64,000 bases of DNA from an uncultured bacterium (GTDB lineage Bacteria; Armatimonadota; Hebobacteria; Hebobacterales; Hebobacteraceae). The position numbers and the translations under genes were made by a program. The notes beneath the pieces were generated by a model. The model was not told where the DNA came from. It worked only from the letters and a program-made list of their open reading frames with translations, and made no database searches. Position 1 is the stretch's first letter. The number at the start of each line of letters is the position of its first letter. The stretch is taken from assembly GCA_964559435.1 (NCBI GenBank), contig CAZLHI010000004.1, positions 23,408-87,407 of the forward strand, read 5' to 3'. Shown piece after piece: positions 6,430-32,119 of this stretch.

Positions 6430-6484
6430 TCGAGCACCGCCACGACCGCGCGCCACGGGGCCAATCATGAGCTGCCTCCTCTCC

Positions 6485-7670: not shown

Positions 7671-7845
7671 CAGCACCTCCAGGAAGCAGCTCGCTCGCCA
7701 TTGGGCTTACCACACGGCGGTCGCATTTCCTATGCACGTGGGACGCTGAGCGAAGGATTGCGGTCGGCCCACGAGCTGGGCACGGAGACTGAAATGGCCT
7801 CGACGCGGCTCCCCATGTGGAAATGATATTGCGAGAGGTGAGTAG

Positions 7846-10311: not shown

Positions 10312-11238
10312 TCAGCGCTCAGTCTCCTCTCTCGTGTCACTGATTCGCGAGCCGAGACCGACGTCAGTTGCCGGACGCACAGCAGCGCCAGCCTGTGCGA
10401 TGACGATTGCGGCCACAATCAACGCTCCGCCCAGCGCTCCCCGTAAGCCGAGAACCTGGCCCTGTATGAGCCACGCGAACAGCGCAGCGAACAGGGGCTC
10501 GGCGGCGAAGATCACGGCGACATGTGTGGCGCTCGTTCGCCGCTGCGCCCACATCTGCACCGCGAAGGCGAGGGCTGTGGCGAGAACTCCGGTCACCGCC
10601 AGGGCCGCAACCGTCCACGCAGTCAGGACGAGACGCGGCTTCTCGAGAAAGGCCCCGAGCGCGGAGCAGATTAGCGCGGTCGTCACGATCTGAGCGAGAG
10701 CAAGCGGAACTGGATCATGGTGGCGCGCCACCCGCTCGGTCGTCACGATGTGGAGTGCGAATGCGAGGGCGCACCCGAGCGTGAGCACGTCACCTCTGTT
10801 CAGCCCCCCTGCATCTGGCGATGTCAGAGCATAGAGTCCTCCCCCGGCGAGCAGCACTGCCCCAACCGACGTTGAGCGCGGTCGCCTACGTGAGACAGCG
10901 ACCGACAGCAAGGGAGTGAGCACGACGCTCAGGCCGGTTATAAAGGCGGACTTCGAGGCCGTCGTGAAGAGAAGCCCCACCGTCTGCAGACCGTAGCCGG
11001 CCGTCAGCCACACGCCAATCAGGACGCCCGCGGCGACAGTGCGCCGGGTCAGACGGAAGGCGCGCCTCGGGAACACGAGCGCCAGCGCCGCAGCGGCGAT
11101 GAGAAAGCGGGCCGTGAGGAAGGCGAACGGCGTCGCGGAGTCGAGCGCCCGCTGAACTGCAGTGAAGGTCAACCCCCAAACGGCGGCCACCGCCAGTAAG
11201 GACAAGTCGGCGCCGAGGGAGGTGCGCTCAGGTCGCAT
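10312..11238 (-). CDS. EamA/DMT-family drug/metabolite transporter.
   Basis: About 10 TM helices in two repeated halves, typical of EamA domains (AFLTARF..., ...FAAEPLFAALFAWL). Confidence 0.8.
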   Translation of the reverse strand: MRPERTSLGADLSLLAVAAVWGLTFTAVQRALDSATPFAFLTARFLIAAAALALVFPRRAFRLTRRTVAAGVLIGVWLTAGYGLQTVGLLFTTASKSAFITGLSVVLTPLLSVAVSRRRPRSTSVGAVLLAGGGLYALTSPDAGGLNRGDVLTLGCALAFALHIVTTERVARHHDPVPLALAQIVTTALICSALGAFLEKPRLVLTAWTVAALAVTGVLATALAFAVQMWAQRRTSATHVAVIFAAEPLFAALFAWLIQGQVLGLRGALGGALIVAAIVIAQAGAAVRPATDVGLGSRISDTREETER

Positions 11239-13354: not shown

Positions 13355-14299
13355 ATGCAACGGGAATCCGCGGCTCATCGAGTTTCACTGCTGCTCCTAT
13401 ATCTCGGCCTCGGACTGATCAGCGCCCTCGTCTGGGTACGTATCGCCAACCTGCCGGAACTGCCCTCGTGGCATGTGGATATGATCACTGGTTCGGCCCC
13501 GGCCCCGAACCAGTACCGGCCGCTGACGCCGTGGCTGGCGGAGGGGCTGCGACAGGTCCTTCCCGGCCGCCACCTCTTTCTCGCGTACATGCTCTTGCGC
13601 GCTCTCCTGACGGGACTCGCCCTGTTCTTCTTTGACCGGTACATGCGCGTCTGGTTCAGACCGGGAGCAGCCGCGGCCGGCGCACTCATGCTGGCAGCGA
13701 TCATCCCCTTCACGTACCTCCATGTCGTCCAGGAGAGCGACCCGCTCAACCTGCTGGTGTTCGTGCTGGCCTTCTGGGCCATGGCGGTGGACCGCGATTC
13801 AGTGCTCCTGCCACTCGTAGCCGTCGGCACCCTCAATCGGGAGACGACCGCACTGATACCGGCGGTCTACCTGCTTGCGCGGTGGGGACAGCGCCCGGCA
13901 AGGGAAGCGGCCGGCCGCGCGGTGGCTCTCGGCCTCGCCTGGGCGGCGGTGTACTTCGGTTTGCTTGCCGCGTACGGTAGGCGGCCCTACTACTGTGACG
14001 TCATCATGTGGGACCTCAACGTTGCCTCTTGGGGACCTACGATCTCGGTATTCCTCGTCTTCGGCGTGCTGTGGGTGCTGGTTGTGATCGGGGCTCGCGA
14101 GGGCCCGCTTCTCCTGAGGCGCGCGCTGTGGCTGCTGCCGGTGTATGTGGCATTGCATTACGTTGTCGCTATGGTGAACGAGGTCAGGCTGTTCCTGCCA
14201 TATGCGCCTGTCGTGATCCCACTGAGTTGGTGGTGGCTCTTCCCCGAGTCCAGGGAACAGCCTCCGCAAGGCCGCAGCGACAGCCGGCGAGCCAGGTGA
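13355..14299 (+). CDS. Polytopic integral membrane protein, hypothetical (about 8-9 TM).
   Basis: The start was chosen at MQRESAAHRVSLLLLYLGLG (ATG 13355), because the track ORF from 12989 overlaps the preceding gene. No family recognised. Confidence 0.55.
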   Translation: MQRESAAHRVSLLLLYLGLGLISALVWVRIANLPELPSWHVDMITGSAPAPNQYRPLTPWLAEGLRQVLPGRHLFLAYMLLRALLTGLALFFFDRYMRVWFRPGAAAAGALMLAAIIPFTYLHVVQESDPLNLLVFVLAFWAMAVDRDSVLLPLVAVGTLNRETTALIPAVYLLARWGQRPAREAAGRAVALGLAWAAVYFGLLAAYGRRPYYCDVIMWDLNVASWGPTISVFLVFGVLWVLVVIGAREGPLLLRRALWLLPVYVALHYVVAMVNEVRLFLPYAPVVIPLSWWWLFPESREQPPQGRSDSRRAR

Positions 14300-14867: not shown

Positions 14868-15104
14868 GTGAACAAGTCTGTGCCAACATTGTTGGGGATC
14901 GTGATTATCCTGCTGGTCGTAGTCCTCGTAATAGTGATATTCAACTATAGGCTGACGCAGCGACAGGCCCACCTGTCGCCTGCGCTCAGCGGCACTCGCG
15001 CAGGAGAGAGGACCCGTGAAATCAGTGGCCCGCGGTCGGAGAAGGAAGGGGTCGGCCCGGCCCGATCAGAGCAGCAAGAAGAAGTCGAGGAGAGAAGCGA
15101 CTAA
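14868..15104 (+). CDS. Small single-TM protein with a charged C-terminal tail, hypothetical.
   Basis: GTG start 7 nt after a strong GAGGAGG RBS. The TM helix is LLGIVIILLVVVLVIVIF. Codon usage is atypically AT-rich at third positions (ata, gta, ttg, aca) for this genome, so the ORF is either foreign or not real. Confidence 0.35.
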   Translation: MNKSVPTLLGIVIILLVVVLVIVIFNYRLTQRQAHLSPALSGTRAGERTREISGPRSEKEGVGPARSEQQEEVEERSD

Positions 15105-15213: not shown

Positions 15214-15369
15214 TAGCAGCTGCAGGAGCGTCGGTGCGGGGCACAAGAGAAGAACAGCCCTGGAGCGAGGTCGAAATCGCTTCCAGAGCTGCCTCGGCGG
15301 TGGTTTACGCTGATTGAGTTGTTGGTGGTGACCGCCGGTCTCTTATACCACACTTGCACCTCGCTGTGA
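15214..15369 (+). pseudogene. Start-less remnant of a prepilin-type (DUF1559-family) N-terminus.
   Basis: My own translation of the frame from the stop at 15214 gives ...LPELPRRWFTLIELLVVTAGLLYHTCTSL*. The DNA tttacgctgattgagttgttggtggtgaccgc is about 27/32 identical to the N-terminal coding DNA of the 16791..17837 paralog (tttacactgattgagctgttggtcgtcatcgc). There is no in-frame start and no downstream body. Confidence 0.4.
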
Positions 15370-15771: not shown

Positions 15772-16677
15772 ATGGAGCAAGCGACTCGCAGGGCTCGGTT
15801 TGGCGTCGATTCGGTAAGACGCGCGAAGCTCTACGACTTCCAGTTGTCCCCGGCAACACCCTTGTATGCTGACAGCAATCTCTTTCCCGAGGAGACACCA
15901 TTGGAGATCGAGGTGCACGCGGGCATCGAGGTGGGAGTCCTGCTCGCCGGCTCAGAGGAGCACCAGCTCGACGATTGGGTGTGCCGCGTGGTACCCGGAG
16001 ACGTCTGGCTCACCGCCACCTCGGAGCCGCATGGATGGCGGGTCGCAGCACCGAACACCGAGGACGTGATCCTCATCTTCCTGCCCGAGTTCCTAGGGGA
16101 AGAACAGCTCGGCAACTATTCCTGGCTCGATCTTTTTGCGCTTCCGGCCAACCAGAGGCCGCGAGTGACGACGCCCGAGATGCGAGAGCGCGTGATGGCA
16201 TTGGGGCATGAGCTCCGGCGCGAGGTAGAGGAGCGGCGACCCGGCTGGGAGAGTGCGGTGCGGCTCGGTCTGCTCAGCCTGCTGCTGACGCTGAGCCGCG
16301 AGTGGGAGCCTCCGGCCCAGTCGAGCGTGCGATCTCGCGTCCGGGCGAGCAGCCTTGCTCGGATCATGCCGGCGCTCAACCTAGTTCAGTCGCGCCCGGC
16401 GAGGCGAGTAGCGGTGGCCGAGGCGGCGAGGGCCTGTGGGCTCAGTCGAGCGCAGTTCTGCCTGATCTTCCAGCATGCAGTGGGGATGAGCTTCGGCCGC
16501 TTCTGTCGCCGCTCTCGACTAGGCTATGCGGCGGAGCTTCTGCTTTCCACCGACCTGACGATGGGTGCGATCGCCCAACGTGCGGGCTTCTCGGACAGCA
16601 GCCACATGCACCGCTCGTTCAGCCGCCACTACGGCTGCACGCCGGGGCAGTACAGAGCGCAGAACCGACCCGAGTAG
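15772..16677 (+). CDS. AraC-family transcriptional regulator (N-terminal cupin-like sensing domain plus C-terminal dual HTH). Paralog 1.
   Basis: The C-terminus has the AraC HTH signature ...AAELLLSTDLTMGAIAQRAGFSDSSHMHRSFSRHYGCTPGQYR. RBS GGTGGAG precedes the ATG. It is about 60% identical to the 18214..19119 product. Confidence 0.85.
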   Translation: MEQATRRARFGVDSVRRAKLYDFQLSPATPLYADSNLFPEETPLEIEVHAGIEVGVLLAGSEEHQLDDWVCRVVPGDVWLTATSEPHGWRVAAPNTEDVILIFLPEFLGEEQLGNYSWLDLFALPANQRPRVTTPEMRERVMALGHELRREVEERRPGWESAVRLGLLSLLLTLSREWEPPAQSSVRSRVRASSLARIMPALNLVQSRPARRVAVAEAARACGLSRAQFCLIFQHAVGMSFGRFCRRSRLGYAAELLLSTDLTMGAIAQRAGFSDSSHMHRSFSRHYGCTPGQYRAQNRPE

Positions 16678-16790
16678 CCGCCAGGGATAGTCGCAGAAGA
16701 CGCCATAAGCAGGCGGAGCGCCCGGCCGGGCGCTCCGCTCAACATTCCACCAAGAACGTCTATCTTGCTAGCGCAAGATCTGAACCAGTA

Positions 16791-17837
16791 CTAGTAGAGG
16801 AGCCAGTCGTTGTCGGCCAGGTAGCCCTCGCTCCAGTCGTCGGCCCTGGTCGGTCCCCAGCTAGAAATACCTGTCAGATCCCCCTCGGCGACCTTGTTGA
16901 TCAGGCCTTCCGAGTTGATCCAGGATGCATGCCCGTCGAGGAAGCCGAGGTTGACGCCGCCCAGGTGCCGCGAATACGGCTTGCGTAGATTCGGGTCCTT
17001 CAGGAAGGAGCCGTTGTTCGGCGCCATCAGATACAGCCCGCAGTCGGCCGCCCACGTGCAGATGTCCCAGTCCTGCCAGCCACAGCACGGGTTGCTGCAC
17101 TCCAGTGTGCAGAGGTCTGGATAGGCGGCAAGGCCCACGTTATTGTCCTCAGCGGAGGCGCCAGCATCACCGCAGATGACGTGGTTGACCGGGTCCGGGA
17201 CCTGCACCAGCTTCAGGCCACCCATCCACTGGGTGCCAATGGTCTGGACGAAGGCCTTGTTGACAGCATCCCCGCCATACTCGGCCACGGCGAGCCGGCG
17301 CTGCAGGTACGAGTCTGTGACCTCGCCGCCCCATCCTGGCGGCCAGGACCAGAAGCAGGGGCCAGCGATCCATGTATCGGCATCGGAGGCGCCGGGTCCC
17401 CATTCGGCGTCATAGGCCTGCAGGTAGGTGAACCAGTCAGGCCCGGGCACGATCCAGCTGGCGCCCCCTTCCATCCTGCCACTGGGGCAGCGCCAGACGT
17501 CACGGTTCTTCACGTACTCGTCGAAGATCACCGGATGTCGGAGGTAGGGGTTGCTCTGGAACACACACCAGTCGTCGTAGTCGTCCGGGGCCTTGGTCTC
17601 GTAGTAGTCGTGAATCTCCTGCCTGGTTTCGGTGGGCGGCAGAACGTCGTTGTTGTCCGCCAGGTACATCTGGATTGCCAGCGCAATGTTCTTGACATTG
17701 GACAGGCAGACAGCCTTGCGCGCGGACTCCCGCGCGCGGGCGAACACGGGAAAGACCATAGCGGCCAGGATCCCGATGATCGCGATGACGACCAACAGCT
17801 CAATCAGTGTAAATCCTCGTACTCTCCGCGTACTCAT
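16791..17837 (-). CDS. Prepilin-type N-terminal domain / DUF1559 / H-X9-DG family protein. Paralog 1.
   Basis: N-terminus MSTRRVRGFTLIELLVVIAIIGILAAMVFPVFARARESARKAVCLSNVKNIALA (DUF1559-type). C-terminal H-X9-DG motif HLGGVNLGFLDGH. The start was chosen at the ATG at 17837. Confidence 0.85.
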   Translation of the reverse strand: MSTRRVRGFTLIELLVVIAIIGILAAMVFPVFARARESARKAVCLSNVKNIALAIQMYLADNNDVLPPTETRQEIHDYYETKAPDDYDDWCVFQSNPYLRHPVIFDEYVKNRDVWRCPSGRMEGGASWIVPGPDWFTYLQAYDAEWGPGASDADTWIAGPCFWSWPPGWGGEVTDSYLQRRLAVAEYGGDAVNKAFVQTIGTQWMGGLKLVQVPDPVNHVICGDAGASAEDNNVGLAAYPDLCTLECSNPCCGWQDWDICTWAADCGLYLMAPNNGSFLKDPNLRKPYSRHLGGVNLGFLDGHASWINSEGLINKVAEGDLTGISSWGPTRADDWSEGYLADNDWLLY

Positions 17838-18176
17838 GAAGCTATTCCCCTTCCACACAGAGATTGGGGGCACAGCGTTTCCGAGATCTCGCGCCCCTCA
17901 CGGCACGAGGACGAGCCAGGATAGTCTCACCTCCTTTCAACATGCTTACTCATGGTACTCGCCGCAACGGCGATCCGGCGACCGAGCTGACGGAAACATG
18001 TCGGCCGGAGCCAGCCCCTGACTGCTCAACAGCCATCGCCATTTGCCACAGGCCTGCCGCTGCGGGCCCTTCATCAAGCATTCCGCCAGAAGGCCGGGAA
18101 ACCCTGCGGCGAGAAGCGCCCTTCCTTTTCGTAGTCTCCACTAGTGTAATTCTACGGGAATGGCCTTTCCTAGTCA

Positions 18177-18213: not shown

Positions 18214-19119
18214 ATGGAACAATACCCACCAGTTTCCGGTTTCGCCGTCGCTTCGGACGCTCCTGCCTTGCGTCTCGAGTACGGCCTGTCGCCAGATTCG
18301 CCGCTGTACGCTGACAGCAACGTCTTCGAGGGCGAGGTGCCGCTGGTCGTCCATGTGCACGAAGGCATAGAGTTCGGCATCCTGCTGTCCGGGGAGCAGG
18401 AGCGGCGCTTCGGAGAACTCGTCTGGGAGATTCGCCCAGGGGACGTGTGGCTGTGCGCGACCTGGGAGCCTCACGGCTACCGGATCATCGCGCCGGAAAG
18501 CACCGACGTCGTAGTGATGTTCCTGCCCGAGTTTCTTGGCGAGGAGAGGCTGGGAGAGCTTTCCTGGCTGAGCCTGTTCGCGGCTTCGCCCGCTCGCCGG
18601 CCGCGCGTCACTGAGGACGGCATGCGGGAGCAAATGCTGGCCGTCGGCCGGGAGATGCAGTGCGAAATCAGCGAGAAGCAGCCCGGCTGGCACAGCGCCG
18701 TTCGGCTTGATCTCCTGAGGGCCTTGCTGACGCTCAGCCGAGCCTGGGAGCCCCCGGCTCGGTCCGAAGCGCGGTCTCGAGTGCAGGCAAGCAACCTTCC
18801 CAGAATCATGCCTGCCCTCGTCTTGCTCCACTCGGAACGAGGTCGCCGCGTGGGGCTGGAGGAGGCGGCCAGAAAGTGTGGTCTCGGCAGGGCGCAGTTC
18901 TCCCTGGTGTTCCGGGATACCATGGGCGTGAGCTTCGGCAAGTTCTGCCTGCGATCACGCCTCGGGTTGGTGGCGGAGCTGCTTCTCTCTACGGACTTGC
19001 CCACTCAGTCAATCGCACAGAGAGCCGGCTTCGTGGATGGAAGCCACATGCACAGGGCCTTCGTAGCTCACTATGGATGCACGCCGGGCCAATACAGGGC
19101 CCAGAACCGGTCCGGCTGA
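18214..19119 (+). CDS. AraC-family transcriptional regulator. Paralog 2.
   Basis: Same architecture and C-terminal HTH as paralog 1 (AELLLSTDLPTQSIAQRAGFVDGSHMHRAFVAHYGCTPGQYR). Confidence 0.85.
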   Translation: MEQYPPVSGFAVASDAPALRLEYGLSPDSPLYADSNVFEGEVPLVVHVHEGIEFGILLSGEQERRFGELVWEIRPGDVWLCATWEPHGYRIIAPESTDVVVMFLPEFLGEERLGELSWLSLFAASPARRPRVTEDGMREQMLAVGREMQCEISEKQPGWHSAVRLDLLRALLTLSRAWEPPARSEARSRVQASNLPRIMPALVLLHSERGRRVGLEEAARKCGLGRAQFSLVFRDTMGVSFGKFCLRSRLGLVAELLLSTDLPTQSIAQRAGFVDGSHMHRAFVAHYGCTPGQYRAQNRSG

Positions 19120-19133
19120 GCGCGCGCTCCCTG

Positions 19134-20690
19134 TCACGTCTCCGGCGTGCTCTCCCTCAAGAGAAGATCGCGGTAGGTGGTCAGGCGCACTCCGCTGTCG
19201 GTGACTGCTGCTGCCACCTGAGCACTGGTCAGTGCCCCGAGCTCCTGCTCCCATCGGTAGTTCCAGCCAAGCTCCCGGTCGACGCTGTCGTCCGCTCCCG
19301 GGTGGCAGCCGACTTCAGTGAGACCTGTCCCGAGGCCGTGGATTGTGCGCCCAAGAGAGTCGGCCTTCCACCGACCGGCCTCGGCGAAGCCGCGGAAGTC
19401 GTCTGCCGTCAGGAAGCCGTTCCCGCGGAGGGAACGCGCGCCTAGGCAACAGAGGGCCCGTAAGGCGACGAGTTCAGTCCTCCGCCTTGTGCTGTGCAGC
19501 AGGCCGCCTCCGGTGCTACAGGAACGCACCTGCCTGGGACAGCGCACCGCTCCTATCCTGTATTCGGAGGCGAGCCCGACCACGACCGGCAGCACCTTTG
19601 GCAGCATGTGCAGGTGCTGATGGCTATCCATGTGGGAGAAGGGCAGGCCGGTTGAGAGGGCCCGCTCGATCTGCGCGCGCAGCTCGGCCTCGATCTCACC
19701 CGTGCGAGTTCTAGGGTAACGCCTCAGGAAGTGCTGCCAGCTCGCGGCGAACCATCCCGCCTGGTCGACGAGACTCGGTATGCGCCTGGACGCCGTCAGC
19801 GCTCGTCGTTCCGTCAACGCCAGGTGGATCCCGAGGTCGAGCGCGGGGCGCTCGCGGGCCAGGGCAACCGCGTGCTCGAAGCTGTCCCCCGTGGGCATCA
19901 GGCTCGCGCTCGTCACGATGCCGCGGTCGAAAGCTTCGGCCACGCCCACATCGATCTCCTTCCTCAGGCCGAAATCGTCTGCGTTCACGATCAGGTGCAC
20001 TGGTCCCGCGCGGCGTCGCCAGTAGCGCCACATCTCTCGGAAGATATGCATCACGACGCGCGTGCTGGCGGCCGTGGAGAGGCCGGCCACCCGCGGATGG
20101 TAGTGGATGCCGACCTCCCGGACGCGAGCGCCAAGCCGCGCCGCCTCGAGCAGCAGCTCTGCGTCGATGAACGAACCCTCGCTCCTCAGCCGCATCTGTT
20201 GGAGCAGCTCGCGGCGCATCAGCTTGAAGGCGAAGTTCACGTCCCGGACCCGCAGCGCGAAGGAGACACGAATCAGCCGGTTGTAGGTCCACGACATGAT
20301 CTCCCTGCGAGGCCCTTCGGCCCGGCCGACGCGGTAGCCGATCAGCAGGTCGACGTCGCCGGTGAACTCGGCGATCGCGGCCCGGGCCTCCTCCACGCTC
20401 ACAGGGAAATCGGAGTCCATGTAGAGAACTAAGTCCTTCGTCGCGCCGGCGAGGCCGCCGCGGATGGCGGCGCCGAGGCCGCGGTTGCGTGAGTGATGAA
20501 CCGCGACGATATTCGAATGCTGTGCCGCCAGTTCGTCTATGAACGCGCCACTGCCATCAGTGCTGCCGTCGTCGACCAGCACCACTTCGAAGTCCGAGAC
20601 AAGGCCCTCGGCAATCTGACTCGTCTCGGGTAGAAGCCGCGGCAGATTGTCGATCTCGTTGTATACTGGATAGACGAACGAGAGATTCAT
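19134..20690 (-). CDS. Bifunctional fusion: N-terminal GT2 polyprenyl-phosphate sugar transferase (DPM1/ArnC/GtrB-like) plus C-terminal YdjC/ChbG-family carbohydrate deacetylase.
   Basis: N-terminal GT2 signature MNLSFVYPVYNE...VVLVDDGSTDGS...YMDSDF. The C-terminal half carries the YdjC motifs LIVNADDFGL...SHMDSHQHLHMLP. The start was chosen at the second ATG (MNLSF...). Confidence 0.8.
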   Translation of the reverse strand: MNLSFVYPVYNEIDNLPRLLPETSQIAEGLVSDFEVVLVDDGSTDGSGAFIDELAAQHSNIVAVHHSRNRGLGAAIRGGLAGATKDLVLYMDSDFPVSVEEARAAIAEFTGDVDLLIGYRVGRAEGPRREIMSWTYNRLIRVSFALRVRDVNFAFKLMRRELLQQMRLRSEGSFIDAELLLEAARLGARVREVGIHYHPRVAGLSTAASTRVVMHIFREMWRYWRRRAGPVHLIVNADDFGLRKEIDVGVAEAFDRGIVTSASLMPTGDSFEHAVALARERPALDLGIHLALTERRALTASRRIPSLVDQAGWFAASWQHFLRRYPRTRTGEIEAELRAQIERALSTGLPFSHMDSHQHLHMLPKVLPVVVGLASEYRIGAVRCPRQVRSCSTGGGLLHSTRRRTELVALRALCCLGARSLRGNGFLTADDFRGFAEAGRWKADSLGRTIHGLGTGLTEVGCHPGADDSVDRELGWNYRWEQELGALTSAQVAAAVTDSGVRLTTYRDLLLRESTPET

Positions 20691-22410
20691 GCCGCCTGCC
20701 ATGAGCTCAAGACTGCTCCAGCCCGCCGCCCGCCGCGACCGAGATTGGCGTCGTCTTTGCTACCCACTGCTTCTGCTCGCGCTGTGTGCTGTGCTGTTCT
20801 TCTGGCGACTTGGCGTCACTCCGCTCGATGACTTCGACGAGGCCTACTACGCTGAGGCCGCCCGGGAGATGCTCGAGCGCGGCAACCTCGGCACGCCCTA
20901 CTACAACGGGAAACCGTTCCTGCTGAAGCCCATTCTGATCTACTGGCTGATCGCCGGCGCCTTTCGCCTTTTCGGCATCACCGAGTTCGCCGCTCGGTCG
21001 GTGTCAGCCTTTTTCGCCATTGTTATCGTCCTGACCACCTACTGGTTCGCCGCCCGCACACTGAGCATGACCGCCGGCCTGCTGGCAGGGCTCATGCTCG
21101 CCCTCTGCTACTTCTGGATTGACACCGGCCGAGAGGCGATGATAGACATGCCCCTGACCGCCGCGCTCGCCCCGGCCGTCTTCTTCTTCTTCCTCGCCAC
21201 GCGTGCCCCCCCAGATCGCAAGCCCGTTCTCTACCTGGCGGCCTACCCGCTCCTGGGAGTTTCTCTGCTGGCCAAAGGTCCCGTCGCCACGGGTGTGGTG
21301 CTTGTGGGACTCATGGCGTACTTGGCTGGCGCGAGGCGATTGCGAGCGACCCTTGCAGAGGCCCGACTCATCCCAGGGATCGCTCTCATGCTCGCGGTCG
21401 CAGCGCCCTGGTACCTCTACGAGTCCCTCCAACAGCCGGAGTTCATTCGAACATTCCTGATCGGGGAGCACTTCGGCCACTTGCACGGGGAGCTGGCGCG
21501 CGATGAACCCTGGTGGGGACACCTGAAGAACCTCCTGATCGGCTTCTACCCCTGGGCGGCGTTCGTGCCCGCCGCCTTCGCACACGCGTTCCGGCAAGAA
21601 AGAGAGAGCGTTCTCCGATTTGCCGCCTGGTGGGCGCTCGTCGTCATCGTTGCCTTCTCCTTCGCAGGAGCCAAGCTGCCGCATTATCTCGTCCCCGCTT
21701 TTCCGGCCCTGGCAATTCTCACCTCGGGTTGGTTTGAGGCATGGGTGCTGGGGCGGGCCCCCAGCAGGGCCTTGACAGGACTCGGCGTGACTCTGCTCGC
21801 GCTCATAGGCGCCACTCTCCTCGCTGCGACCGTGATTGCAATCCTCATGCCGTTGCCTCTGCGCGCCCGGCTGGCGGCCAGCTGGGGTTCTTGGACGCCC
21901 GGCGCTGCGCCGGTCGTCATGTTGGCGGCCCTTGCCATCGGGTCAACCGGGGCCGCCGCGGCCGCAGTAGCCGGCCGCCGACGCGCGGTCTTCCCCCTCC
22001 TCGCCGCAGCCGTCGCGCTAGCCGCGGTGGCACACATCGGCTGGTTCAAGCCGCGGCTGGCGCAGATTCAGGCGCAGCCGCGCAAGGAGCTGGCCCAGTT
22101 CGCAGCCACAGCCCTCCCCGAGGAGGAGCCGCTCGGCGTCTACTACGCGAAGCGCAACGCCACCATCTTCTATGCGCGCCGGCCCATCGTGGATCTTGGC
22201 CAATGGGAAGTGGCAGAGCTGACCTGCTTCCTCTCCTCGCCAGCTCCAGCCACGGCTCTGACGCACGCCAAGTTCATCTCCGCCCTGATCCAGGAGGTTC
22301 CCGAACTGCACGTGTGGAGGCGGCGCGGTGACTTCGTCCTGGTCTCCAACCATCCGATTCCCTCCGTTGGGAGCCGTGCGCCCGAGGCCGACTCCCGACG
22401 GCAGCCATGA
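20689..22410 (+). CDS. GT-C fold glycosyltransferase of the ArnT/PMT (GT83/GT39) family, using a polyprenyl-phosphate-sugar donor.
   Basis: 573 aa with about 12 TM. The N-terminal ArnT/PMT block is FDEAYYAEAAREMLERGNLGTPYYNGKPFLLKPILIYWLIAGAFRLFG. The start codon overlaps the divergent GT2-YdjC start within CATG; 20701 is an alternative start. Confidence 0.8.
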   Translation: MPPAMSSRLLQPAARRDRDWRRLCYPLLLLALCAVLFFWRLGVTPLDDFDEAYYAEAAREMLERGNLGTPYYNGKPFLLKPILIYWLIAGAFRLFGITEFAARSVSAFFAIVIVLTTYWFAARTLSMTAGLLAGLMLALCYFWIDTGREAMIDMPLTAALAPAVFFFFLATRAPPDRKPVLYLAAYPLLGVSLLAKGPVATGVVLVGLMAYLAGARRLRATLAEARLIPGIALMLAVAAPWYLYESLQQPEFIRTFLIGEHFGHLHGELARDEPWWGHLKNLLIGFYPWAAFVPAAFAHAFRQERESVLRFAAWWALVVIVAFSFAGAKLPHYLVPAFPALAILTSGWFEAWVLGRAPSRALTGLGVTLLALIGATLLAATVIAILMPLPLRARLAASWGSWTPGAAPVVMLAALAIGSTGAAAAAVAGRRRAVFPLLAAAVALAAVAHIGWFKPRLAQIQAQPRKELAQFAATALPEEEPLGVYYAKRNATIFYARRPIVDLGQWEVAELTCFLSSPAPATALTHAKFISALIQEVPELHVWRRRGDFVLVSNHPIPSVGSRAPEADSRRQP

Positions 22411-22689
22411 CTCGCCTCGAAAGTCGGTGCCCCAGAGGCATGACTGCACGTGGCCCCGCCCCTCCAGCTCACGTACGGCGAGTGCCCCGGGGGAGGCGGC
22501 GCCTCCCCCCAACGCGGGCGGAGCGCCCAAACGGACGCTCCGCCTTAGCACTCCATAGAAAGCCTATCTTGCTAGCGCAAGATCTTAGCCAGTCTTAGCC
22601 GCCAGGCCTACAAGCGCCTTGGCGGGCGCTCCGCCCTTCGAGTCCGCAGAAGGAAAGCGTATCCTGCCAGTGCAGGATCGGAGCCAGTA

Positions 22690-23727
22690 CTAGTAGATCA
22701 GCCAGTTGTTCTCCGCGAGGTAGCCCTCGCTCCAGTCATCGTCCGTCGTCGGTCCCCACGGACCCACGCCCGAGAGATCTTCCTCTTTTATCTTGTTGAG
22801 AACAGTCTGGGAGTTGAACCACTGCGCGTGACCGTCGAGGAAGCCGATGTTTATGCCGCCCAAGTGACGCGCGTACGGCTTCCGTAACTCGGGGTTGGCG
22901 AGGAACGAGCCGTTGTTCGGGGCGCCGTTGTAGAGCCCGCAGTCCACGGCCCAGGTGCAGAGATCCCAGTCATACCAGCCGCAGCACGGGTTGCTGCACT
23001 CCAGGTTGCAGAGGTCCGGGTAGGCCAGGGTTCCCGCACCGAAGTCGTCAACGATGACGCCCGCGTCGCCGCAGACGACAGCGTTGACCGGGTCCGGCAC
23101 CGAGACCAGCTTCAGGCCTGATGCATAGACCGTCCCGATGCTCTGCACGAACGCCTTGTGGGCACCTACGGCGGTCCGCCCCTGCAGGATGGAGTCGGTG
23201 ACCTCACCGCCCCAGCCGCTCGGCCAGATTACACCGCACGGCTTCAGGTCGTAGTCGCCCGTTCCCCAGTCTCCCTCGTTGGCCACCATAAAGCCAAACC
23301 AGTCCGGGATCGGGATGACCCCACCCGCGCCGCCTTCGACCTTGGCGCTCGGGCACCGCCACACGTCGCGGTTCTTGACGTACTCGTCGAGAATCACCGG
23401 TATCCGCAGATACGGGTTCGACTGCCGGGCACGGTGGCAATCTCCGTCTTCGTCCACGTCCCAGCCATCCTCCCTGCCACCTGGTGCCAGGTTGAAGTAG
23501 TCCAGCACTTCCCGCCGGTGCTCTTCGGGCGGAAGTGTGTCGTTGTTGTCCGCCAGATACATCTGAAACGCCAGGGCGATGTTCTTGACATTGGAGAGAC
23601 ACACGGCCTTTCGGGCAGACTCGCGTGCCCTTGCGAAGACCGGGAAGACCATCGCGGCAAGAATCCCGATGATCGCGATCACCACCAACAGCTCAATGAG
23701 CGTGAATCCCTTGCGTCCTCGTAGCAT
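22690..23727 (-). CDS. Prepilin-type N-terminal domain / DUF1559 / H-X9-DG family protein. Paralog 2.
   Basis: N-terminus MLRGRKGFTLIELLVVIAIIGILAAMVFPVFARARESARKAVCLSNVKNIALA. C-terminal motif HLGGINIGFLDGH. Strong RBS GGAGGAGGTG upstream of the ATG at 23727. Confidence 0.85.
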   Translation of the reverse strand: MLRGRKGFTLIELLVVIAIIGILAAMVFPVFARARESARKAVCLSNVKNIALAFQMYLADNNDTLPPEEHRREVLDYFNLAPGGREDGWDVDEDGDCHRARQSNPYLRIPVILDEYVKNRDVWRCPSAKVEGGAGGVIPIPDWFGFMVANEGDWGTGDYDLKPCGVIWPSGWGGEVTDSILQGRTAVGAHKAFVQSIGTVYASGLKLVSVPDPVNAVVCGDAGVIVDDFGAGTLAYPDLCNLECSNPCCGWYDWDLCTWAVDCGLYNGAPNNGSFLANPELRKPYARHLGGINIGFLDGHAQWFNSQTVLNKIKEEDLSGVGPWGPTTDDDWSEGYLAENNWLIY

Positions 23728-24472: not shown

Positions 24473-25096
24473 TCAGTCGGGAGCCCCGGCTTCCAGGGCA
24501 ACGATGCGGCGCGCCACCTCGACGAGCTTGGTGTTCGACCGGCTGCTGGTGCGCTGAAGCCAGCGATAGGCTTCCTGCTCTCCGACGTTCATGTCCCGCA
24601 TGATGATGCCTTTGGCGCGCTCGACCAGCTTGCGGGCGTCCAGAGAGTCCTTCAGGTCGCCGACCTCGCCGCGGAGGGACTGCAGATCCCTGAAGCGGGC
24701 CTGTGCCGTGGCGATGGCGGCTGCCAACCGTTCCCGGGTGATGGGCTTCACGAGGTAGCTGAAAACACCAGCCTCTGCCGCGTCCTCGATAAGTGACTGA
24801 TCTGTGTGGCCGGTGATGATAACGATGGGCACGGAATGCTCACCCAGGATGGACCTGGCCGCTTCGAGACCGTTCAGTTCCGGCATACGGATGTCGAGCA
24901 GGACGAGGTCAGGGCCGGTCTGCGCCGCCATGTCCACCGCCTCTCGGCCATCTCGGGCCTGTGCCACAACCTGGTGGCCGAGGGATTCGGACATGCGGAC
25001 GATTGCCGTCAGGACGGCTTCCTCGTCGTCAGCCACGAGAAGTCTCAGAGTTCCCACGTCGCCCCCTGCGCCACCCGCCCTATTGCCCCCGCTCAC
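24473..25096 (-). CDS. Response regulator with a REC domain and an ANTAR RNA-binding antitermination output domain (AmiR/NasT-like).
   Basis: REC block LLVADDEE...DLVLLDIRMPELNGLEA. ANTAR block ERAKGIIMRDMNVGEQEAYRWLQRTSSRSNTKLVEVARRIV. The true start may be the internal GTG at about 25060 (MGTLRLLVADDE). Confidence 0.85.
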   Translation of the reverse strand: MSGGNRAGGAGGDVGTLRLLVADDEEAVLTAIVRMSESLGHQVVAQARDGREAVDMAAQTGPDLVLLDIRMPELNGLEAARSILGEHSVPIVIITGHTDQSLIEDAAEAGVFSYLVKPITRERLAAAIATAQARFRDLQSLRGEVGDLKDSLDARKLVERAKGIIMRDMNVGEQEAYRWLQRTSSRSNTKLVEVARRIVALEAGAPD

Positions 25097-25403: not shown

Positions 25404-26405
25404 ATGGGAACAGCAGCGAAGCCGCCAGACCGTGCAGAACTGACAAGCACAACAAACAGCCTGGACTCACTCAACAATATCGAGAGGGCACATCAGCGTC
25501 TATGGACTCTGGCATTCATCCTCTTCGTGCTCGTGAGCCTGAGCCTGCTGATGCTCGACGCGAGCTCTGGCGCTGCCGAACGTATTTTCGCCGGCGTGAA
25601 GACCACGGCCCGAGTTCTTCTCGACCAGTACGGCACGGCCGTGGCGCTGTCTGTCATCATCCTCCTCATCTGCGCCTATTTCTATGAGAAGTTGGGCATC
25701 GTCCGGGAGCAGAGCCGACAGCTCGTCGGGGCGCTGGAGGCCAACGCGCGGCTCCTCGGCCTGCGCAACCATCAGCTTGACACATGGGACCAGCTCAGTC
25801 ACCAACTGATCACCAACTTCAATCTGCCGCGCCTTCTCGAGCTCATTGCCAGGACGGCAGCAGAGGTCACAGAGTCGGACTGCAGCGCCGTCATGGTGGC
25901 CGAGAACGACAGCCCTCATCTGAGATTGGCGGCCATCTACGAGCGCGGGATGCAGACGGAACTGGCGCGGCGTGTCGCCTGCAAGCTCATAGAGACAGGC
26001 AAGCCGGTGGACCTCCGGCCCGGATCGGCCCCGGAAGATCTGGATAGGCCGGACTTGGAGTGGCAGCATCTCGTTGGTATCGCAGCAACACCTCTCCTCG
26101 CGCCCGACGCCATCAAGGGAGCGCTCCTTGTGGGCCGGCTGAAGCCGGAGGAGCCTTTCCCGAGCAATGTCGCCGGCGTTCTGCAATCGTTCGGAAGCCA
26201 GGCTTCCATCGCCCTGGAGAAGGCGCAGCTCTACGCGGAGAGCCAAAAGCAGCTTCAGAGACTCGCCAAGCTGCTCGGGGAGTTGCGCTCCGCGCATGAG
26301 CGGCTCCACGCGCCAGCTGCAGCCGCCGAGCGCGCCGATGCAGCGGGGCAACAGGCGGATCTCCATAGAGAGCGGTCACAGGAGAGCACCACCGAGCCGG
26401 TTTAG
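25404..26405 (+). CDS. Membrane-anchored GAF-domain protein with a C-terminal coiled coil and no kinase domain.
   Basis: One N-terminal TM segment. GAF-like block LPRLLELIARTAAEVTESDCSAVMVAEND...LAAIYERG, followed by a helical Q/A/R-rich tail. Confidence 0.6.
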   Translation: MGTAAKPPDRAELTSTTNSLDSLNNIERAHQRLWTLAFILFVLVSLSLLMLDASSGAAERIFAGVKTTARVLLDQYGTAVALSVIILLICAYFYEKLGIVREQSRQLVGALEANARLLGLRNHQLDTWDQLSHQLITNFNLPRLLELIARTAAEVTESDCSAVMVAENDSPHLRLAAIYERGMQTELARRVACKLIETGKPVDLRPGSAPEDLDRPDLEWQHLVGIAATPLLAPDAIKGALLVGRLKPEEPFPSNVAGVLQSFGSQASIALEKAQLYAESQKQLQRLAKLLGELRSAHERLHAPAAAAERADAAGQQADLHRERSQESTTEPV

Positions 26406-28983: not shown

Positions 28984-30093
28984 TCAGCGGTCGGGCAGAA
29001 GGCTGACTGCCAGCTCAACGTTCCGCAAAGCGGCTGCCCGGAGGTGAGACAGGCGCTCCGCCAGCAGCGTCGAGACCTCGGAACGGGCCTCCCAAGTCTC
29101 CTCGATCGCGGCCTCGAGGCGCTCTGGGTCGAACTCCTCCACCGCGGCGGCCGGTTCCAGGTCGAGCTGGTCCAGCAATCCGTCAACCTTCGGATCGTAG
29201 GAGATGGCCACCAGCGGCACTGCGGCGAGCGCGCTGAAGACAAGCGAATGGAGGCGCATGCCAACCAGAAGGTCGCAGCCGGCCACCAGTGCCAGCATGT
29301 CACGTGTGCTCAGCTTGGCCTGGACGACGTGAGACTGACACGCCATGGCCCCGGCCGCTCGTCTGGCGATCTGCGCGTCCTGCCCGGGATGCAGCGCCAC
29401 GAGCACAGGTCGCAGCCCAACCCGCCGACAGGCCCTTCCGATGGCCTCGCCAAGCTCCGCGGCCGTCGCCGCGCTGTCGGCCCGCCCCGGCGCTCGCCGC
29501 AGCGACACGATTGCGGCCGGATGACCGCGGTCGGACAGGCCAGCCTTCTTGCGGGCGACTGTGATCTCTTCAGAAGTCGGCGGTGGCATGAGAAAGGCCA
29601 AGTCCGCGGTCACCTCCGCTCCGCGCGCGACCGCGAGATTGCGCAGCTCATCGAGGGAGAGCCGATCACGGAGGGCGAACACATCCACTCCTCTGAGAAC
29701 GCGCCGGACGGCCCATCGAATGGCCCCTCGCCGCAGAGGGCCGACGCTCTGGCCGACGAAAGCAACGGGACGCCCGGCGACGTGCGCAAGATACATCACT
29801 GCCAGGTAGTACAGCGGCGACCGCCAGCTGGTGACATCCTGAAGCAGGCCGCCGCCTCCGCTGACCACCAGGTCGCTGGCCCTCGCCTCTCGCCGGGCGA
29901 TCCGCAAATCCCGAGGGACTGCGATGACCCCGTGCTCGGCCGCGGTGGCCGCGGGATTCCCCGACATCACGATCAGCTCAGCGCGAGGGGCGAGCTCCTG
30001 AAATCCTGAAATCAGGCCGGCGAGGATCGCTTCATCACCTATGTTGCCGAACCCGTAGTAGCCCGATATCAGGACGCGGGCGCGCCGACTCAT
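28984..30093 (-). CDS. csaB: Polysaccharide pyruvyl transferase CsaB, which adds the pyruvate ketal to secondary cell wall polymer (SCWP) for SLH-domain anchoring.
   Basis: The start was chosen at MSRRARVLISGYYGFGNIGDEAIL (ATG 30093). The GxYGxxNxGDEA N-terminus and the later ...LVGMRLHSLVFSA... block are characteristic of the PS_pyruv_trans/CsaB family. The track ORF is over-extended to 30282. Confidence 0.85.
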   Translation of the reverse strand: MSRRARVLISGYYGFGNIGDEAILAGLISGFQELAPRAELIVMSGNPAATAAEHGVIAVPRDLRIARREARASDLVVSGGGGLLQDVTSWRSPLYYLAVMYLAHVAGRPVAFVGQSVGPLRRGAIRWAVRRVLRGVDVFALRDRLSLDELRNLAVARGAEVTADLAFLMPPPTSEEITVARKKAGLSDRGHPAAIVSLRRAPGRADSAATAAELGEAIGRACRRVGLRPVLVALHPGQDAQIARRAAGAMACQSHVVQAKLSTRDMLALVAGCDLLVGMRLHSLVFSALAAVPLVAISYDPKVDGLLDQLDLEPAAAVEEFDPERLEAAIEETWEARSEVSTLLAERLSHLRAAALRNVELAVSLLPDR

Positions 30094-32000
30094 GATGAGA
30101 GGGACCGACGGTCGGCGACGGCCGACCAAATGAGGAGGAGGATAACTCCGAGCACGACCCCCAGCCATAGGCCATTCAGGGCTCGGAGAATCGACACGTA
30201 CAAGGGCGTATGAAAGTGACAGAATGTGTTGAGCAACGACACCTGCCCCAAGCTGGCAATAGCACCTACCAGTGGCAGCCATGCGCGGCGGCCTCGTACC
30301 GCCAGCACGACGCTCAGCATAAGGGCAGGATGTCCGAGGAGAAACTCCTTAGTGCGCGGCCGCACGGCCAAGGCAGATTCCAGCAACTCCCGCGCCTTGA
30401 CCTCCAATAGCGATGGCAAGACGAGAGGTTGGTTGCCACTTCGCGTGACCACGAACCCGACCGCTGCCAGGACTATGACGACTGCCGCCACCTGCGAGAC
30501 GCTGACCGGCTGACGAAGGAACTGAGCCACGTGCACCCGCGTCCGCACCCACCAGCTCGACATCGGCTCGATGCCGCCGGAGACATTCGCGATGACGGCG
30601 GCCACCGTGAGGACGATCGGTGCCAGCAGCGATAACTTGACACCGGTGAAGAGCGCAATGCCAGACAGATAGCCGACGCGCGAGTACATGCCGACGATCA
30701 GCATCGCGCCGGCGAGCGAGATGGCAGATGCCGCCACGAGTCGATAGGCGGCCGCGCCCAGAAGAAACATCCGGCCGGCCCGCGGCCGCACGCCAGGCAC
30801 GCCCTGCACTGCCCAGACGGCGGCCAGCGTCGGGAAGGCTACGGCCGCCACCAATCCGCCGAGTGGAGTGAGCAGGGGCAAAGCAAGCAGAGATATTGCG
30901 CCGCCGATCGCCAGCAGGACGAGCAACACGCCCCACGACCAGGGGGCGCTCACCGGGACCAGTCGTCGCAGTAGCAGTATTGCACCGGCGACGATGCCGA
31001 GCGCGACAACCGCGCGCGGCCACCTGGGCGGCCACCCCCGGGGGGCTGAGAACGGCCTCCCGCTGCCCAGATGGAATCCGTCGGCACGGAGCGCACTGGC
31101 GATGGCCTTCACGTATTCGGTATTGCGTGCAGCGGGTTCCGGAATGGCCCGGGTGATCAGACGCACGTAGAGCGCACGGATGTTGCGCTCTTGCGCGGCG
31201 CGGGCGTATCGAGGCACGCCCACAGCCGGAGTCATTGTGAGCATGTCTGATTCGCTGGTGCTGTGCACGCGGACCACTCGATCGAAGAGCCTCCCCGCGA
31301 GGGCGCCATCGCCCCGTTGGCCGGCCATCTCCACACGCCCGAACAGGAGATCGTTCTCCCGCATTGCCTGTGCTGTGATGTCGATGAGGCCGTCGTATCC
31401 AAGGATCTCTTCTTTGTCGAAGATGATCAGACGCGCGCCGGCCCCTACCGCGTCAGCGACGGCCGCCTCGACTGCGGCCGCGGTGGCGCCGGGCCAGTTC
31501 CTGAGACGCGCCACCACATCCAGCCCCACCGCCTCGGCGGCCGCGACGTGCTCCACGGGCAGCAGAGCGGGCACCTCCGCGAGATCGCCTCCGGGCATCC
31601 GAACGGCTACCACCGGTGGCGGAGCCGCCATCTGGATCTCAGTCTGCGGCAGCCGGGCCCTCAGAGCTGTCACAAGCAGGACGGCGAGCGAGCCGTCAGG
31701 GGTAATCAGACTCGTCTCACCCCGCAGCGACATCGCCATGATGCGGCCTTCTGCAACGAGGTCGCCAACTGTCCGCTCTCTGACTGCCAGCGCGGAGGCA
31801 CCCGCGTCTCTCAGGCCTACCAAGAACTCGGGCAATGTCTTGCCCGAGGCGCTCGCCACAAGGCACGCGTCATCGACATCGATGATGATCTCCACAGTGC
31901 GATTGGTCCCCTCGATCCGCGCCCTCCCCATTGCGAGGAACACGGCGGCGGCCAAAGCCAGCACGACAAGGAGGATCAAGATCTTGTCCGTACGATCCAT
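30090..32000 (-). CDS. Large membrane protein with an N-terminal extracytoplasmic domain and a C-terminal polytopic region; DUF5693-like (csaB-associated).
   Basis: The start was chosen at MDRTDKILILLVVLALAAAVFLAM (ATG 32000); the track start at 32120 is a TTG. Its TGA stop overlaps the csaB ATG (ATGA). The DUF5693 assignment and its frequent adjacency to csaB are from memory. Confidence 0.65.
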   Translation of the reverse strand: MDRTDKILILLVVLALAAAVFLAMGRARIEGTNRTVEIIIDVDDACLVASASGKTLPEFLVGLRDAGASALAVRERTVGDLVAEGRIMAMSLRGETSLITPDGSLAVLLVTALRARLPQTEIQMAAPPPVVAVRMPGGDLAEVPALLPVEHVAAAEAVGLDVVARLRNWPGATAAAVEAAVADAVGAGARLIIFDKEEILGYDGLIDITAQAMRENDLLFGRVEMAGQRGDGALAGRLFDRVVRVHSTSESDMLTMTPAVGVPRYARAAQERNIRALYVRLITRAIPEPAARNTEYVKAIASALRADGFHLGSGRPFSAPRGWPPRWPRAVVALGIVAGAILLLRRLVPVSAPWSWGVLLVLLAIGGAISLLALPLLTPLGGLVAAVAFPTLAAVWAVQGVPGVRPRAGRMFLLGAAAYRLVAASAISLAGAMLIVGMYSRVGYLSGIALFTGVKLSLLAPIVLTVAAVIANVSGGIEPMSSWWVRTRVHVAQFLRQPVSVSQVAAVVIVLAAVGFVVTRSGNQPLVLPSLLEVKARELLESALAVRPRTKEFLLGHPALMLSVVLAVRGRRAWLPLVGAIASLGQVSLLNTFCHFHTPLYVSILRALNGLWLGVVLGVILLLIWSAVADRRSLSS

Positions 32001-32119
32001 TGAGGCCCTCTGCCCGCGCCTGCCTGTGCGCCGCATTGTAGCACGGCAAGGAGGGAGCCGCAAACACAGGGGCGAGGTAGGCCGCCCGATTCCGGCGAAA
32101 CCGGCTGTGAGGATGGTCA

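Follow-up and report, generated by a model that had tools for sequence, protein, structure and literature searches.

A divergent gene pair in a 64,000 nt stretch of contig CAZLHI010000004.1 (GenBank assembly GCA_964559435.1; hereafter the window, whose first letter is position 1) probably forms a polyprenyl-phosphate amino-sugar glycosylation system with its first two cytoplasmic steps on one polypeptide. One gene joins a glycosyltransferase family 2 (GT2) domain to a YdjC-family de-N-acetylase domain, the other encodes an ArnT-like glycosyltransferase of the GT-C fold, and their start codons overlap. An initial annotation, made from the sequence before any database search, had likened the pair to the Flm module of Francisella and the Lgm module of Bordetella. 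That pathway reading is supported by the domains of both proteins, by conserved linkage to a GT-C gene, by operons in which the two fused domains are encoded separately, and by a Synergistota relative that has an ArnE/F-like gene pair as well. The genomes closest to the window belong to 'Candidatus Hebobacteria', a class within Armatimonadota.

Architecture of the fusion protein

Both open reading frames (ORFs) of the pair lie exactly where the initial annotation put them, and Pfam recognises both halves of the fused one. Glycos_transf_2 (PF00535) covers residues 8-169 (E 1.7e-22, 80.5 bits against a cutoff of 23.3) and YdjC covers residues 237-500 (E 3.1e-65, 221 bits against a cutoff of 29.7, profile positions 2-264 of 266), and the translation contains all four motifs quoted initially, VYPVYNE, DDGSTDGS, NADDFGL and HMDSHQHLHM. 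Together with the Pfam PMT_2 and NCBIfam ArnT scores of the GT-C given below, these values exclude chance matches. Structure prediction with AlphaFold2 (AF2), one of the checks initially proposed, models the fusion as one confident two-domain body (predicted local distance difference test, pLDDT, 92.2; predicted template modelling score, pTM, 0.82).

By family and fold the GT2 half is probably a polyprenyl-phosphate glycosyltransferase of the DPM1/ArnC/GtrB type. Its best NCBIfam match is ArnC (NF007986; 79 bits, under the cutoff of 529), with weaker matches to PpgS (31 bits) and a dolichyl-phosphate hexose transferase; its solved sequence relatives in a PDB search are ArnC, DPMS and GtrB; and the top Foldseek matches are ArnC, GtrB and DPMS (E 1e-14 to 1e-11), followed by glucosyl-3-phosphoglycerate synthase. 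In an alignment of 66 full-length fusion homologues, D40/D41, the DxD motif D92-S-D94 and the motif R-D150-x-N152-F-A-F-K are invariant or nearly so. The same alignment shows D238/D239, H289 and H359 of the YdjC half to be invariant and H361 nearly invariant. The corresponding motifs, N236-A-D238-D239-F-G, GIHL (H289) and D355-S-H-Q-H359-L-H361, align to their equivalents in ChbG (7vi8) and EF3048, so that the C-terminal half not only scores as YdjC, a point on which the initial annotation could have been refuted, but by alignment also retains the Asp/His/His metal and catalytic site. Foldseek likewise places this half with ChbG, EF3048 and CmCBDA (E 6e-21).

No transmembrane (TM) segment was predicted anywhere in the fusion protein and no signal peptide was found, the N-terminus starting straight at the first beta-strand of the GT-A fold. 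Since there is neither a signal peptide nor a TM segment between the domains, deacetylation would have to take place in the compartment of the nucleotide sugar, that is, at the cytoplasmic face. The segment of residues 209-226, directly before the YdjC domain, has the top hydrophobic moment in the protein (0.82), contains six Arg and four aromatic residues, and is modelled as a helix at the domain junction of the AF2 structure. It would act as a membrane-interface helix replacing the C-terminal TM helices of ArnC and GtrB, and the fusion would be a monotopic enzyme on the cytoplasmic face. TM-less members exist among polyprenyl-phosphate GT2 enzymes, PpgS and human DPM1 being examples.

The ArnT-like GT-C

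The divergent gene product matches Pfam PMT_2 (E 2.3e-15), its best NCBIfam model is ArnT (NF009784; E 1.3e-40, model positions 8-368 of 539), and its only significant PDB sequence match is CmArnT of Cupriavidus metallidurans (E 2e-27). A crude scan finds about 11 hydrophobic segments, which makes the 12 TM helices originally assigned to it approximately right. Its AF2 model (pLDDT 93.1, pTM 0.92) aligns with ArnT structures 5f15 and 5ezm in Foldseek over 567 columns, the periplasmic C-terminal domain included (E 1.4e-23 for 5f15, TM-score 0.73-0.76). Other GT-C folds, comprising oligosaccharyltransferases, ALG enzymes, PMTs and mycobacterial arabinosyltransferases, match at E >= 1e-7, 16 or more orders of magnitude weaker, so the protein falls with ArnT and not with the oligosaccharyltransferases or PMTs, the groupings that the initial annotation had named as damaging to its reading. 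Residues D50, K80, D153 and Y333, invariant or nearly invariant among 56 GT-C homologues, align with CmArnT D55, K85, D158 and Y345, the offsets of the alignment agreeing with published numbering. The latter four are reported by Petrou et al. 2016 to be catalytic and carrier-phosphate residues; CmArnT E84, H265 and H267 form a metal site.

Overlapping starts and conserved linkage

The initial annotation had the two starts abutting. They are indeed adjacent, but this understates the arrangement, for the start codons overlap within a single CATG: the GT-C ATG occupies 20689-20691, the fusion ATG is the complement of 20688-20690, and no intergenic DNA separates the genes. The maximal ORF of the fusion (19134-20702, minus strand) has 522 codons, and both its homologues and an independent gene call begin at M5 (MNLSFVYP...). 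A second CATG lies at 20700-20703, 12 nt beyond the first. The overlap on a single CATG recurs in loci L007, L010, L012 and L014 (at about 8000-8003), whose fusion proteins are 60-68% identical, and the double CATG recurs in L005 (at about 7989-8002). With the divergent starts overlapping and intergenic DNA nil, the promoters would have to lie inside the partner's coding sequence, or else the mRNAs would be leaderless; a promoter and terminator consensus scan around the gene pair returned no consensus sites and no sigma-70-like site. Both the gene pair and a 518-aa protein of identical sequence also occur on an independent public contig.

A one-genome-per-species scan gave 363 stretches related to the GT2 half, of which the best 80 were examined, and domain-level hidden Markov models built from the fusion alignment sorted these loci into fused, split and GT2-only forms. 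The fused form is found in Hebobacteria-type Armatimonadota, in Chthoniobacterales and other Verrucomicrobiota, and in some Acidimicrobiia; the split form is found in Armatimonadia and Capsulimonadaceae, Synergistota, some Verrucomicrobiae and some Acidimicrobiia. Split genes adjoin one another with a stop/start overlap of ATGA or GTGA (4 nt in Armatimonadia). In a neighbour-joining tree of the GT2 domain, fusions from Armatimonadota and Verrucomicrobiota share one clade, beside split forms; those of actinobacteria, whose linker is 30-50 residues long, fall in a separate clade, together with split and GT2-only forms. Because the fusions thus occupy two separate GT2 clades, this topology points to at least two independent GT2-YdjC fusion events.

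A GT-C partner is nearly always adjacent. Of 14 related Hebobacteria-type loci, 13 have an ArnT-like GT-C head-to-head with the fusion, the exception being L009; every one of the 24 Armatimonadia loci has one upstream, on the same strand and 33-36% identical to that of the window; and one or two GT-Cs of the GT87 family flank the fusion in seven of eight Verrucomicrobia loci. Overall, GT-C adjacency holds for 44 of 46 Armatimonadota and Verrucomicrobia loci, in three gene orders and with two GT-C families. Recurrent fusion of GT2 with YdjC, combined with linkage to different GT-C families, is the pattern expected for a donor-making unit and its transferase. The Synergistota metagenome-assembled genome (MAG) L053 carries an Arn-like operon (55-3253) of an ArnT-like GT-C, a GT2 and, in ArnD's place, a YdjC protein, followed by two proteins of 118 aa each, which score best with the ArnE (70 bits) and ArnF (35 bits) models. 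In Zipacnadia (L063) a small SMR-like protein and a GT-C of the YfhO type accompany the same GT2. The Capsulimonadaceae operon is followed by a gene of the Wzy_C family (O-antigen ligase/polymerase), and its slot between GT-C and GT2 is filled by unrelated genes.

The initial annotation knew of no earlier description of the fusion. No description of it was found in the literature searched, which was of limited coverage, and in that sense the claim stands; the architecture itself is common in databases, both Pfam domains being present at full length in 115 of the 120 best database clusters, from three phyla, under names such as 'ChbG/HpnK family deacetylase', 'HpnK' (many in IMG) and 'hopanoid biosynthesis associated protein HpnK'. 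The HpnK label is probably wrong for this family, because its GT2 half shows no kinship with HpnI and hpn genes are missing from the surroundings. A plasmid collection contained no fused form, and stand-alone chbG and hpnK only.

Some relatives depart from the common plan. In the Acidimicrobiia-type loci L028 and L029 the fusion is followed by one gene of 215-256 aa and then by a four-TM protein of about 200 aa and a protein of about 830 aa, with no recognisable GT-C downstream of the fusion. The four-TM protein of L028, the locus that was scanned, is a CDP-alcohol phosphatidyltransferase by Pfam, and the lipid or the acceptor may differ in these two loci. An Actinomycetota MAG (L061, 6753-9479) encodes a 657-aa protein with a seven-TM N-terminal domain joined to the same GT2 domain, and a separate YdjC gene follows; profile and structure searches did not establish the seven-TM domain as a GT-C (hhalign probability 1.8%, no PDB match). 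A subgroup of longer fusions (684-714 aa; P0081, P0084-P0087, P0091, P0099, P0104) would be a membrane-anchored version, judging from P0081 and P0104, the two aligned, in which the YdjC domain is followed by some 190 further C-terminal residues that include hydrophobic segments.

Proposed pathway

In the pathway that we propose, the GT2 domain, held at the inner membrane face by its amphipathic helix, would move N-acetylhexosamine (HexNAc) from uridine diphosphate (UDP)-HexNAc to undecaprenyl phosphate, as its family and fold suggest. The fused YdjC domain would at once strip the N-acetyl group to give undecaprenyl-phosphate-hexosamine, a step to which its family, its intact active site and the precedent of characterised systems all point; candidate sugars are glucosamine (GlcN) and galactosamine (GalN). 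Fusion would render the reversible first step irreversible and keep the acetylated intermediate from export. A flippase would then carry the lipid-linked amino sugar outward, and the divergent ArnT-like GT-C would put the free-amine sugar on an envelope acceptor, adding positive charge; the GT-C's fold, its conserved catalytic residues and its conserved linkage to the fusion gene are consistent with that role. The lipid acceptor of the GT2 domain, the order of the reactions, the flipping and the final transfer are in this way predicted from kinship with better known enzymes.

The logic is that of the Arn pathway, in which ArnC, ArnD, ArnEF and ArnT respectively make a lipid-linked N-acylated sugar, deacylate it at the cytoplasmic face, flip it and transfer it by a GT-C. 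The YdjC-family enzyme NaxD deacetylates undecaprenyl-phosphate-N-acetylgalactosamine before GalN joins lipid A (PMC11279074), and LgmB decorates lipid A phosphates with GlcN (PMC11401268).

Several observations weigh against this scheme or against a close identification with its analogues. No flippase gene lies beside the pair in the window or in close relatives, as judged by neighbourhood comparison. The ArnT equivalog score of the GT-C is 139.5 bits, far under the cutoff of 567, and CmArnT E84, H265, H267 and R270 correspond to L79, G259, H261 and H264, so that of these four only H267 is kept; the changes at the E84, H265 and R270 positions imply a lipid-phosphate and metal site unlike that of ArnT. 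On its model the GT-C is ArnT-like in fold and core chemistry, yet it is no ArnT equivalog. For the YdjC half, the top curated NCBIfam model is HpnK (TIGR03473; 200.3 bits, under the cutoff of 232.6, with a full-length alignment). As for lipid A as destination, the donor unit also pairs with unrelated GT-C families and occurs in Actinomycetota that have no lipopolysaccharide (LPS), and a Pfam scan of roughly 50 predicted genes in the 64-kb window turned up none for lipid A.

No small polytopic gene adjoins the pair, and two genes of the window were tried as the flippase and rejected: an EamA transporter (10312-11238) is 8 kb away and generic, and a 314-aa membrane protein 5 kb away belongs to no family and has no profile similarity to the GT-C. 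A dedicated small flippase accompanies GT2 and GT-C in L053 (ArnE/F-like) and L063 (SMR-like).

Candidate acceptors

To our knowledge, all characterised trios of GT2, YdjC and GT-C act on lipid A. Lipid A or an LPS phosphate is the leading candidate acceptor here, though we give it somewhat less than an even chance; it is favoured because ArnT is the nearest characterised relative of the GT-C, because a relative has an Arn-type flippase pair, and because Armatimonadetes are reported to possess core LPS genes (PMC5007114). Lipid A cannot be the general acceptor of such modules, given the unrelated GT-C partners and the carriers among Actinomycetota, which are without LPS genes (PMC5007114). Another envelope glycan is a tentative but serious second candidate, some other kind of molecule is an unlikely one, and a protein is less likely again.

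Alternative explanations

The rival account that survives best retains the donor pathway and has the GT-C decorate a non-lipid-A envelope glycan, whether a secondary cell-wall polymer, a peptidoglycan-linked polysaccharide, an O-antigen or core, or a capsule. The donor unit's association with GT87 and other polytopic proteins, its presence in LPS-less Actinomycetota, the CmArnT E84, H265 and R270 positions that are not kept and the Wzy_C gene after the Capsulimonadaceae operon all speak for it, and mycobacterial PpgS and Rv3779, which put GalN on arabinogalactan, provide a precedent. The window also encodes a 965-aa protein with three SLH domains (3571-6468, minus strand) and, in adjoining genes, a CsaB-like polysaccharide pyruvyl transferase and a DUF5693 protein (28984-30282 and 30090-32120, both minus strand). 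These suggest an anchoring system of SLH domains and pyruvylated cell-wall polymer, that is, a polymer-based envelope, and the SLH protein and CsaB-like transferase make cell-wall polymers plausible alternative acceptors. Against this stand the kinship of the GT-C with a lipid A enzyme (the E-value margin of 16 orders in favour of ArnT), the lipid A acceptors of the trios known to be characterised, and the fact that no glycan-assembly genes are conserved beside the pair in close relatives. We regard this account as rather unlikely, if well short of negligible.

A second account, prompted by the initial annotation, also keeps the donor pathway and makes the flanking DUF1559 pseudopilin-like proteins, or other surface proteins, the recipients of a free-amine hexosamine. 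The analogy is to TfpW, a GT-C that arabinosylates pilin, and the GT-C superfamily does take in protein O-glycosyltransferases. Two DUF1559 paralogues, 66% identical, flank the module, and a DUF1559 gene lies within 500 bp of it in the window and in L005, L012, L013 and L014; L057 also has one adjacent, and in L039 one lies within the operon. When adjacency was counted in 36 Armatimonadota loci, with the expectation taken from local gene density, the excess proved weak: five of 12 Hebobacteria-type loci against 1.8 expected, and two of 24 Armatimonadia loci against 1.1. The five loci share ancestry and synteny, so they are not phylogenetically independent. No DUF1559 gene is adjacent in 22 of the 24 Armatimonadia loci or in any Verrucomicrobia, Synergistota or Actinomycetota locus; the neighbouring DUF1559 gene of the window, being tail-to-tail with the GT-C, is not co-transcribed with it; unrelated genes occupy the Capsulimonadaceae slot between GT-C and GT2; and PMT-type structures match the GT-C far worse than ArnT does. 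What remains of the original suggestion is thus a small excess confined to one lineage, for which reason DUF1559 was rejected as a conserved partner, and we consider this account quite improbable.

We hold in similarly low regard the possibility that the two genes have separate functions, the fusion yielding a cytoplasmic-face end product or using another lipid or a soluble acceptor, and the GT-C using another donor, with their adjacency reflecting co-regulation or chance. It would suit the lack of a flippase encoded nearby, the Actinomycetota loci that have a CDP-alcohol phosphatidyltransferase near the fusion and no recognisable GT-C, and L009, where the GT-C has shrunk to a 40-residue remnant (7763-7882) beside an intact fusion gene. 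It does not sit well with GT-C adjacency in 44 of 46 loci across gene orders and families, with the overlap of the start codons, or with the structural relatives of the GT2 half, which are polyprenyl-phosphate glycosyltransferases, the makers of GT-C donors.

According to a hopanoid account, the fusion would be an HpnI-HpnK equivalent that transfers N-acetylglucosamine (GlcNAc) onto bacteriohopanetetrol and then deacetylates it. The naming in IMG and the HpnK model noted above favour it, and a genuine HpnK shares 33% identity with the YdjC half (E 8e-33); but the latter's HpnK score is below the model's cutoff, and it is equally close to ChbG, at about 34% identity. Moreover, the GT2 half compares with genuine HpnI (Mycetohabitans) at E 0.096 and matched no HpnI model, the conserved partner of the fusion is a GT-C, and the window contains no hpnJ, hpnH radical-SAM or other hopanoid gene, unlike a genuine hpnI-hpnJ-hpnK cluster. 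With a GT2 unlike HpnI, a sub-cutoff HpnK score and no hpn neighbours, this reading was set aside as highly improbable. Least credible of all is a processive synthase-deacetylase for a chitosan-like or poly-N-acetylglucosamine-like exopolysaccharide, of the PgaC/PgaB or NodC/NodB type: the weak NCBIfam PgaC/IcaA match (51 bits, first 100 residues) spans the nucleotide-binding part only, the top full-domain structure matches are the non-processive ArnC, GtrB and DPMS, and the lack of a TM channel in the GT2 half, with these structural neighbours, rules it out.

Comparison with known systems

A polyprenyl-phosphate amino-sugar system of the kind preferred here shares its logic, namely a GT2, a YdjC enzyme acting on the carrier and a GT-C, with FlmF2/NaxD/FlmK of Francisella (NaxD also occurs in Acinetobacter baumannii), where FlmF2 makes undecaprenyl-phosphate-GalNAc and FlmK is the GT-C that passes the amino sugar on. 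It differs in that GT2 and YdjC form one polypeptide without TM helices and that the host is an armatimonadotal, Terrabacteria diderm. Bordetella LgmA/LgmC/LgmB (with LgmD), which places GlcN on lipid A, likewise encodes an ArnC-like GT2 (LgmA), a YdjC-type deacetylase (LgmC) and an ArnT-like GT-C together; there they are separate genes in one operon, whereas here a fusion is paired with a divergent, start-overlapping GT-C, and no LgmD-like or flippase gene is seen beside the pair.

The Arn pathway, which adds aminoarabinose to lipid A, contains the best solved relatives of both proteins, ArnC and ArnT, and matches in logic; the Synergistota relative even shares an ArnE/F-like pair. However, the deacylase here is of YdjC and not ArnD type and would remove acetyl instead of formyl, the GT2 is without the TM helices of ArnC, the ArnC and ArnT equivalog scores are far below their cutoffs, and the residues at the E84, H265 and R270 positions differ. 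Mycobacteria make polyprenyl-phosphate-GalNAc with PpgS (Rv3631), a TM-less GT2, and deliver GalN to arabinogalactan with the GT-C Rv3779; we know of no deacetylase assigned to that pathway. It resembles the present module in combining a TM-less GT2 with a GT-C, and has a non-lipid-A acceptor, but the similarity is weak (31 bits) and the GT-C family is different. The precedent does show a way in which such a module could work in LPS-less Actinomycetota.

In the HpnI/HpnJ/HpnK pathway to bacteriohopanetetrol glucosamine and cyclitol ether, HpnK deacetylates GlcNAc on a membrane lipid, as the YdjC half would here, and HpnK is the model nearest to that half; the unrelated GT2 half, the absence of hpn neighbours and the sub-cutoff HpnK score set it apart. 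Finally, three-component periplasmic glycosylation systems (GtrA/GtrB/GtrC, GacI-L, CsbB/GtcA/YfhO) also combine a GtrB-type polyprenyl-phosphate sugar synthase with a GT-C, but there the sugar is transferred unmodified, whereas here de-N-acetylation would be built into the synthase. Relative to Flm, Lgm and Arn, what differs is the fusion, the loss of TM helices from the synthase, the divergent overlapping starts and the other host phyla; the principle is already known.

Gene neighbourhood

The features of the locus are listed in Table 1. The window is high in GC, uniform in composition and chromosomal, with housekeeping genes that include a riboflavin operon, mfd, mreB, a MurA-type (EPSP-synthase family) gene and ATP synthase; an Rfam scan of the window gave no matches.

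Table 1. Coordinates of the gene pair, its domains and its immediate neighbours in the window
Feature	Position	Strand	Basis
GT2-YdjC fusion gene, 518 aa	19134..20690	-	ORF list, Pfam, public identical protein, AF2 model
GT2 domain, aa 1-228, polyprenyl-phosphate glycosyltransferase type (probable)	20007..20690	-	NCBIfam, PDB sequence, Foldseek, conservation
Amphipathic Arg/aromatic-rich helix, aa 209-226, STRVVMHIFREMWRYWRR	20013..20066	-	Hydrophobic moment and AF2
YdjC-family de-N-acetylase domain, aa 233-518 plus stop	19134..19994	-	Pfam, alignment, Foldseek, conservation
ArnT-like GT-C, 573 aa, GT83/COG1807 type, with C-terminal periplasmic domain	20689..22410	+	PMT_2, NCBIfam, PDB, Foldseek
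CATG common to both divergent starts	20688..20691		Sequence
DUF1559/prepilin-type protein, tail-to-tail with GT-C (context only)	22690..23727	-	Pfam N_methyl and DUF1559, NCBIfam H-X9-DG
AraC-family regulator (cupin and helix-turn-helix), convergent with fusion gene (context only)	18214..19119	+	Pfam

By neighbourhood comparison, the AraC-family regulator beside the fusion is kept in relatives L004, L006 and L007 and absent from others. In the window it belongs to a duplicated cassette of AraC-family regulator and DUF1559 gene that brackets the module, one copy at 15772-17873 and the other divided between 18214-19119 and 22690-23727; identity is 60% between the regulators and 66% between the DUF1559 proteins, whose first approximately 50 mature residues are the same. 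After both DUF1559 genes there is a repeated 3' element (16709-16794, 22514-22598 and 22613-22693), one copy following the first gene and two lying in tandem between the GT-C and the second. A GC-rich hairpin (GCGGAGCGCC...GGCGCTCCGC) and a 42-nt unit that contains a palindrome (ATCTTGCTAGCGCAAGAT) make up the element, which may act as a bidirectional terminator.

Upstream of the first AraC gene, a stretch of about 1.3 kb without convincing genes holds the remnant of a prepilin-type gene (15244-15366, plus strand; ...RRWFTLIELLVVTAGLLYHTCTSL and stop), which has no start codon and stops soon after the motif. Further out is the gene for the conserved 314-aa polytopic membrane protein (13355-14299, plus strand; motif APAPNQYRP), which is 58-65% identical between genomes, matched no Pfam or NCBIfam family and showed no profile similarity to the GT-C. 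Its distance from the module is 2-5 kb in the window, L009 (12835-13782), L013 (12312-13571) and L014 (11780-12763), and beside it a small single-TM protein (MNKSVPTLLGIVIILL...) is encoded in the window (14868-15104, plus strand), L009 (11842-12180) and L014 (11203-11562). On the other side, an ANTAR-type response regulator (24473-25096, minus strand) and a GAF-domain membrane protein (25404-26405, plus strand) adjoin the second DUF1559 gene, and both neighbours recur in L005 and L009.

Implications

In chemistry and logic the module follows the Flm, Lgm and Arn pathways, and no new principle is involved. If the proposed pathway is correct, it would provide gene-fusion evidence that synthesis of a lipid-linked amino sugar and its de-N-acetylation are coupled on the cytoplasmic face, a coupling that has so far been just a model for NaxD and LgmC. 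It would also correct a systematic mislabel, that of hundreds of proteins called HpnK or hopanoid-associated, and offer a compact two-gene system for heterologous production of undecaprenyl-phosphate-hexosamine. Were the GT-C to modify DUF1559 or another surface protein, this would be a new cationic protein glycosylation, supplied by a bifunctional synthase-deacetylase, and the first functional handle on the huge DUF1559 family. Cationic amino-sugar decoration is familiar from a few Proteobacteria, in which it drives resistance to polymyxin and antimicrobial peptides. The present module would extend such decoration of the envelope to Armatimonadota, Verrucomicrobiota, Synergistota and LPS-less Actinomycetota, and in the last of these acceptors other than lipid A would have to exist.

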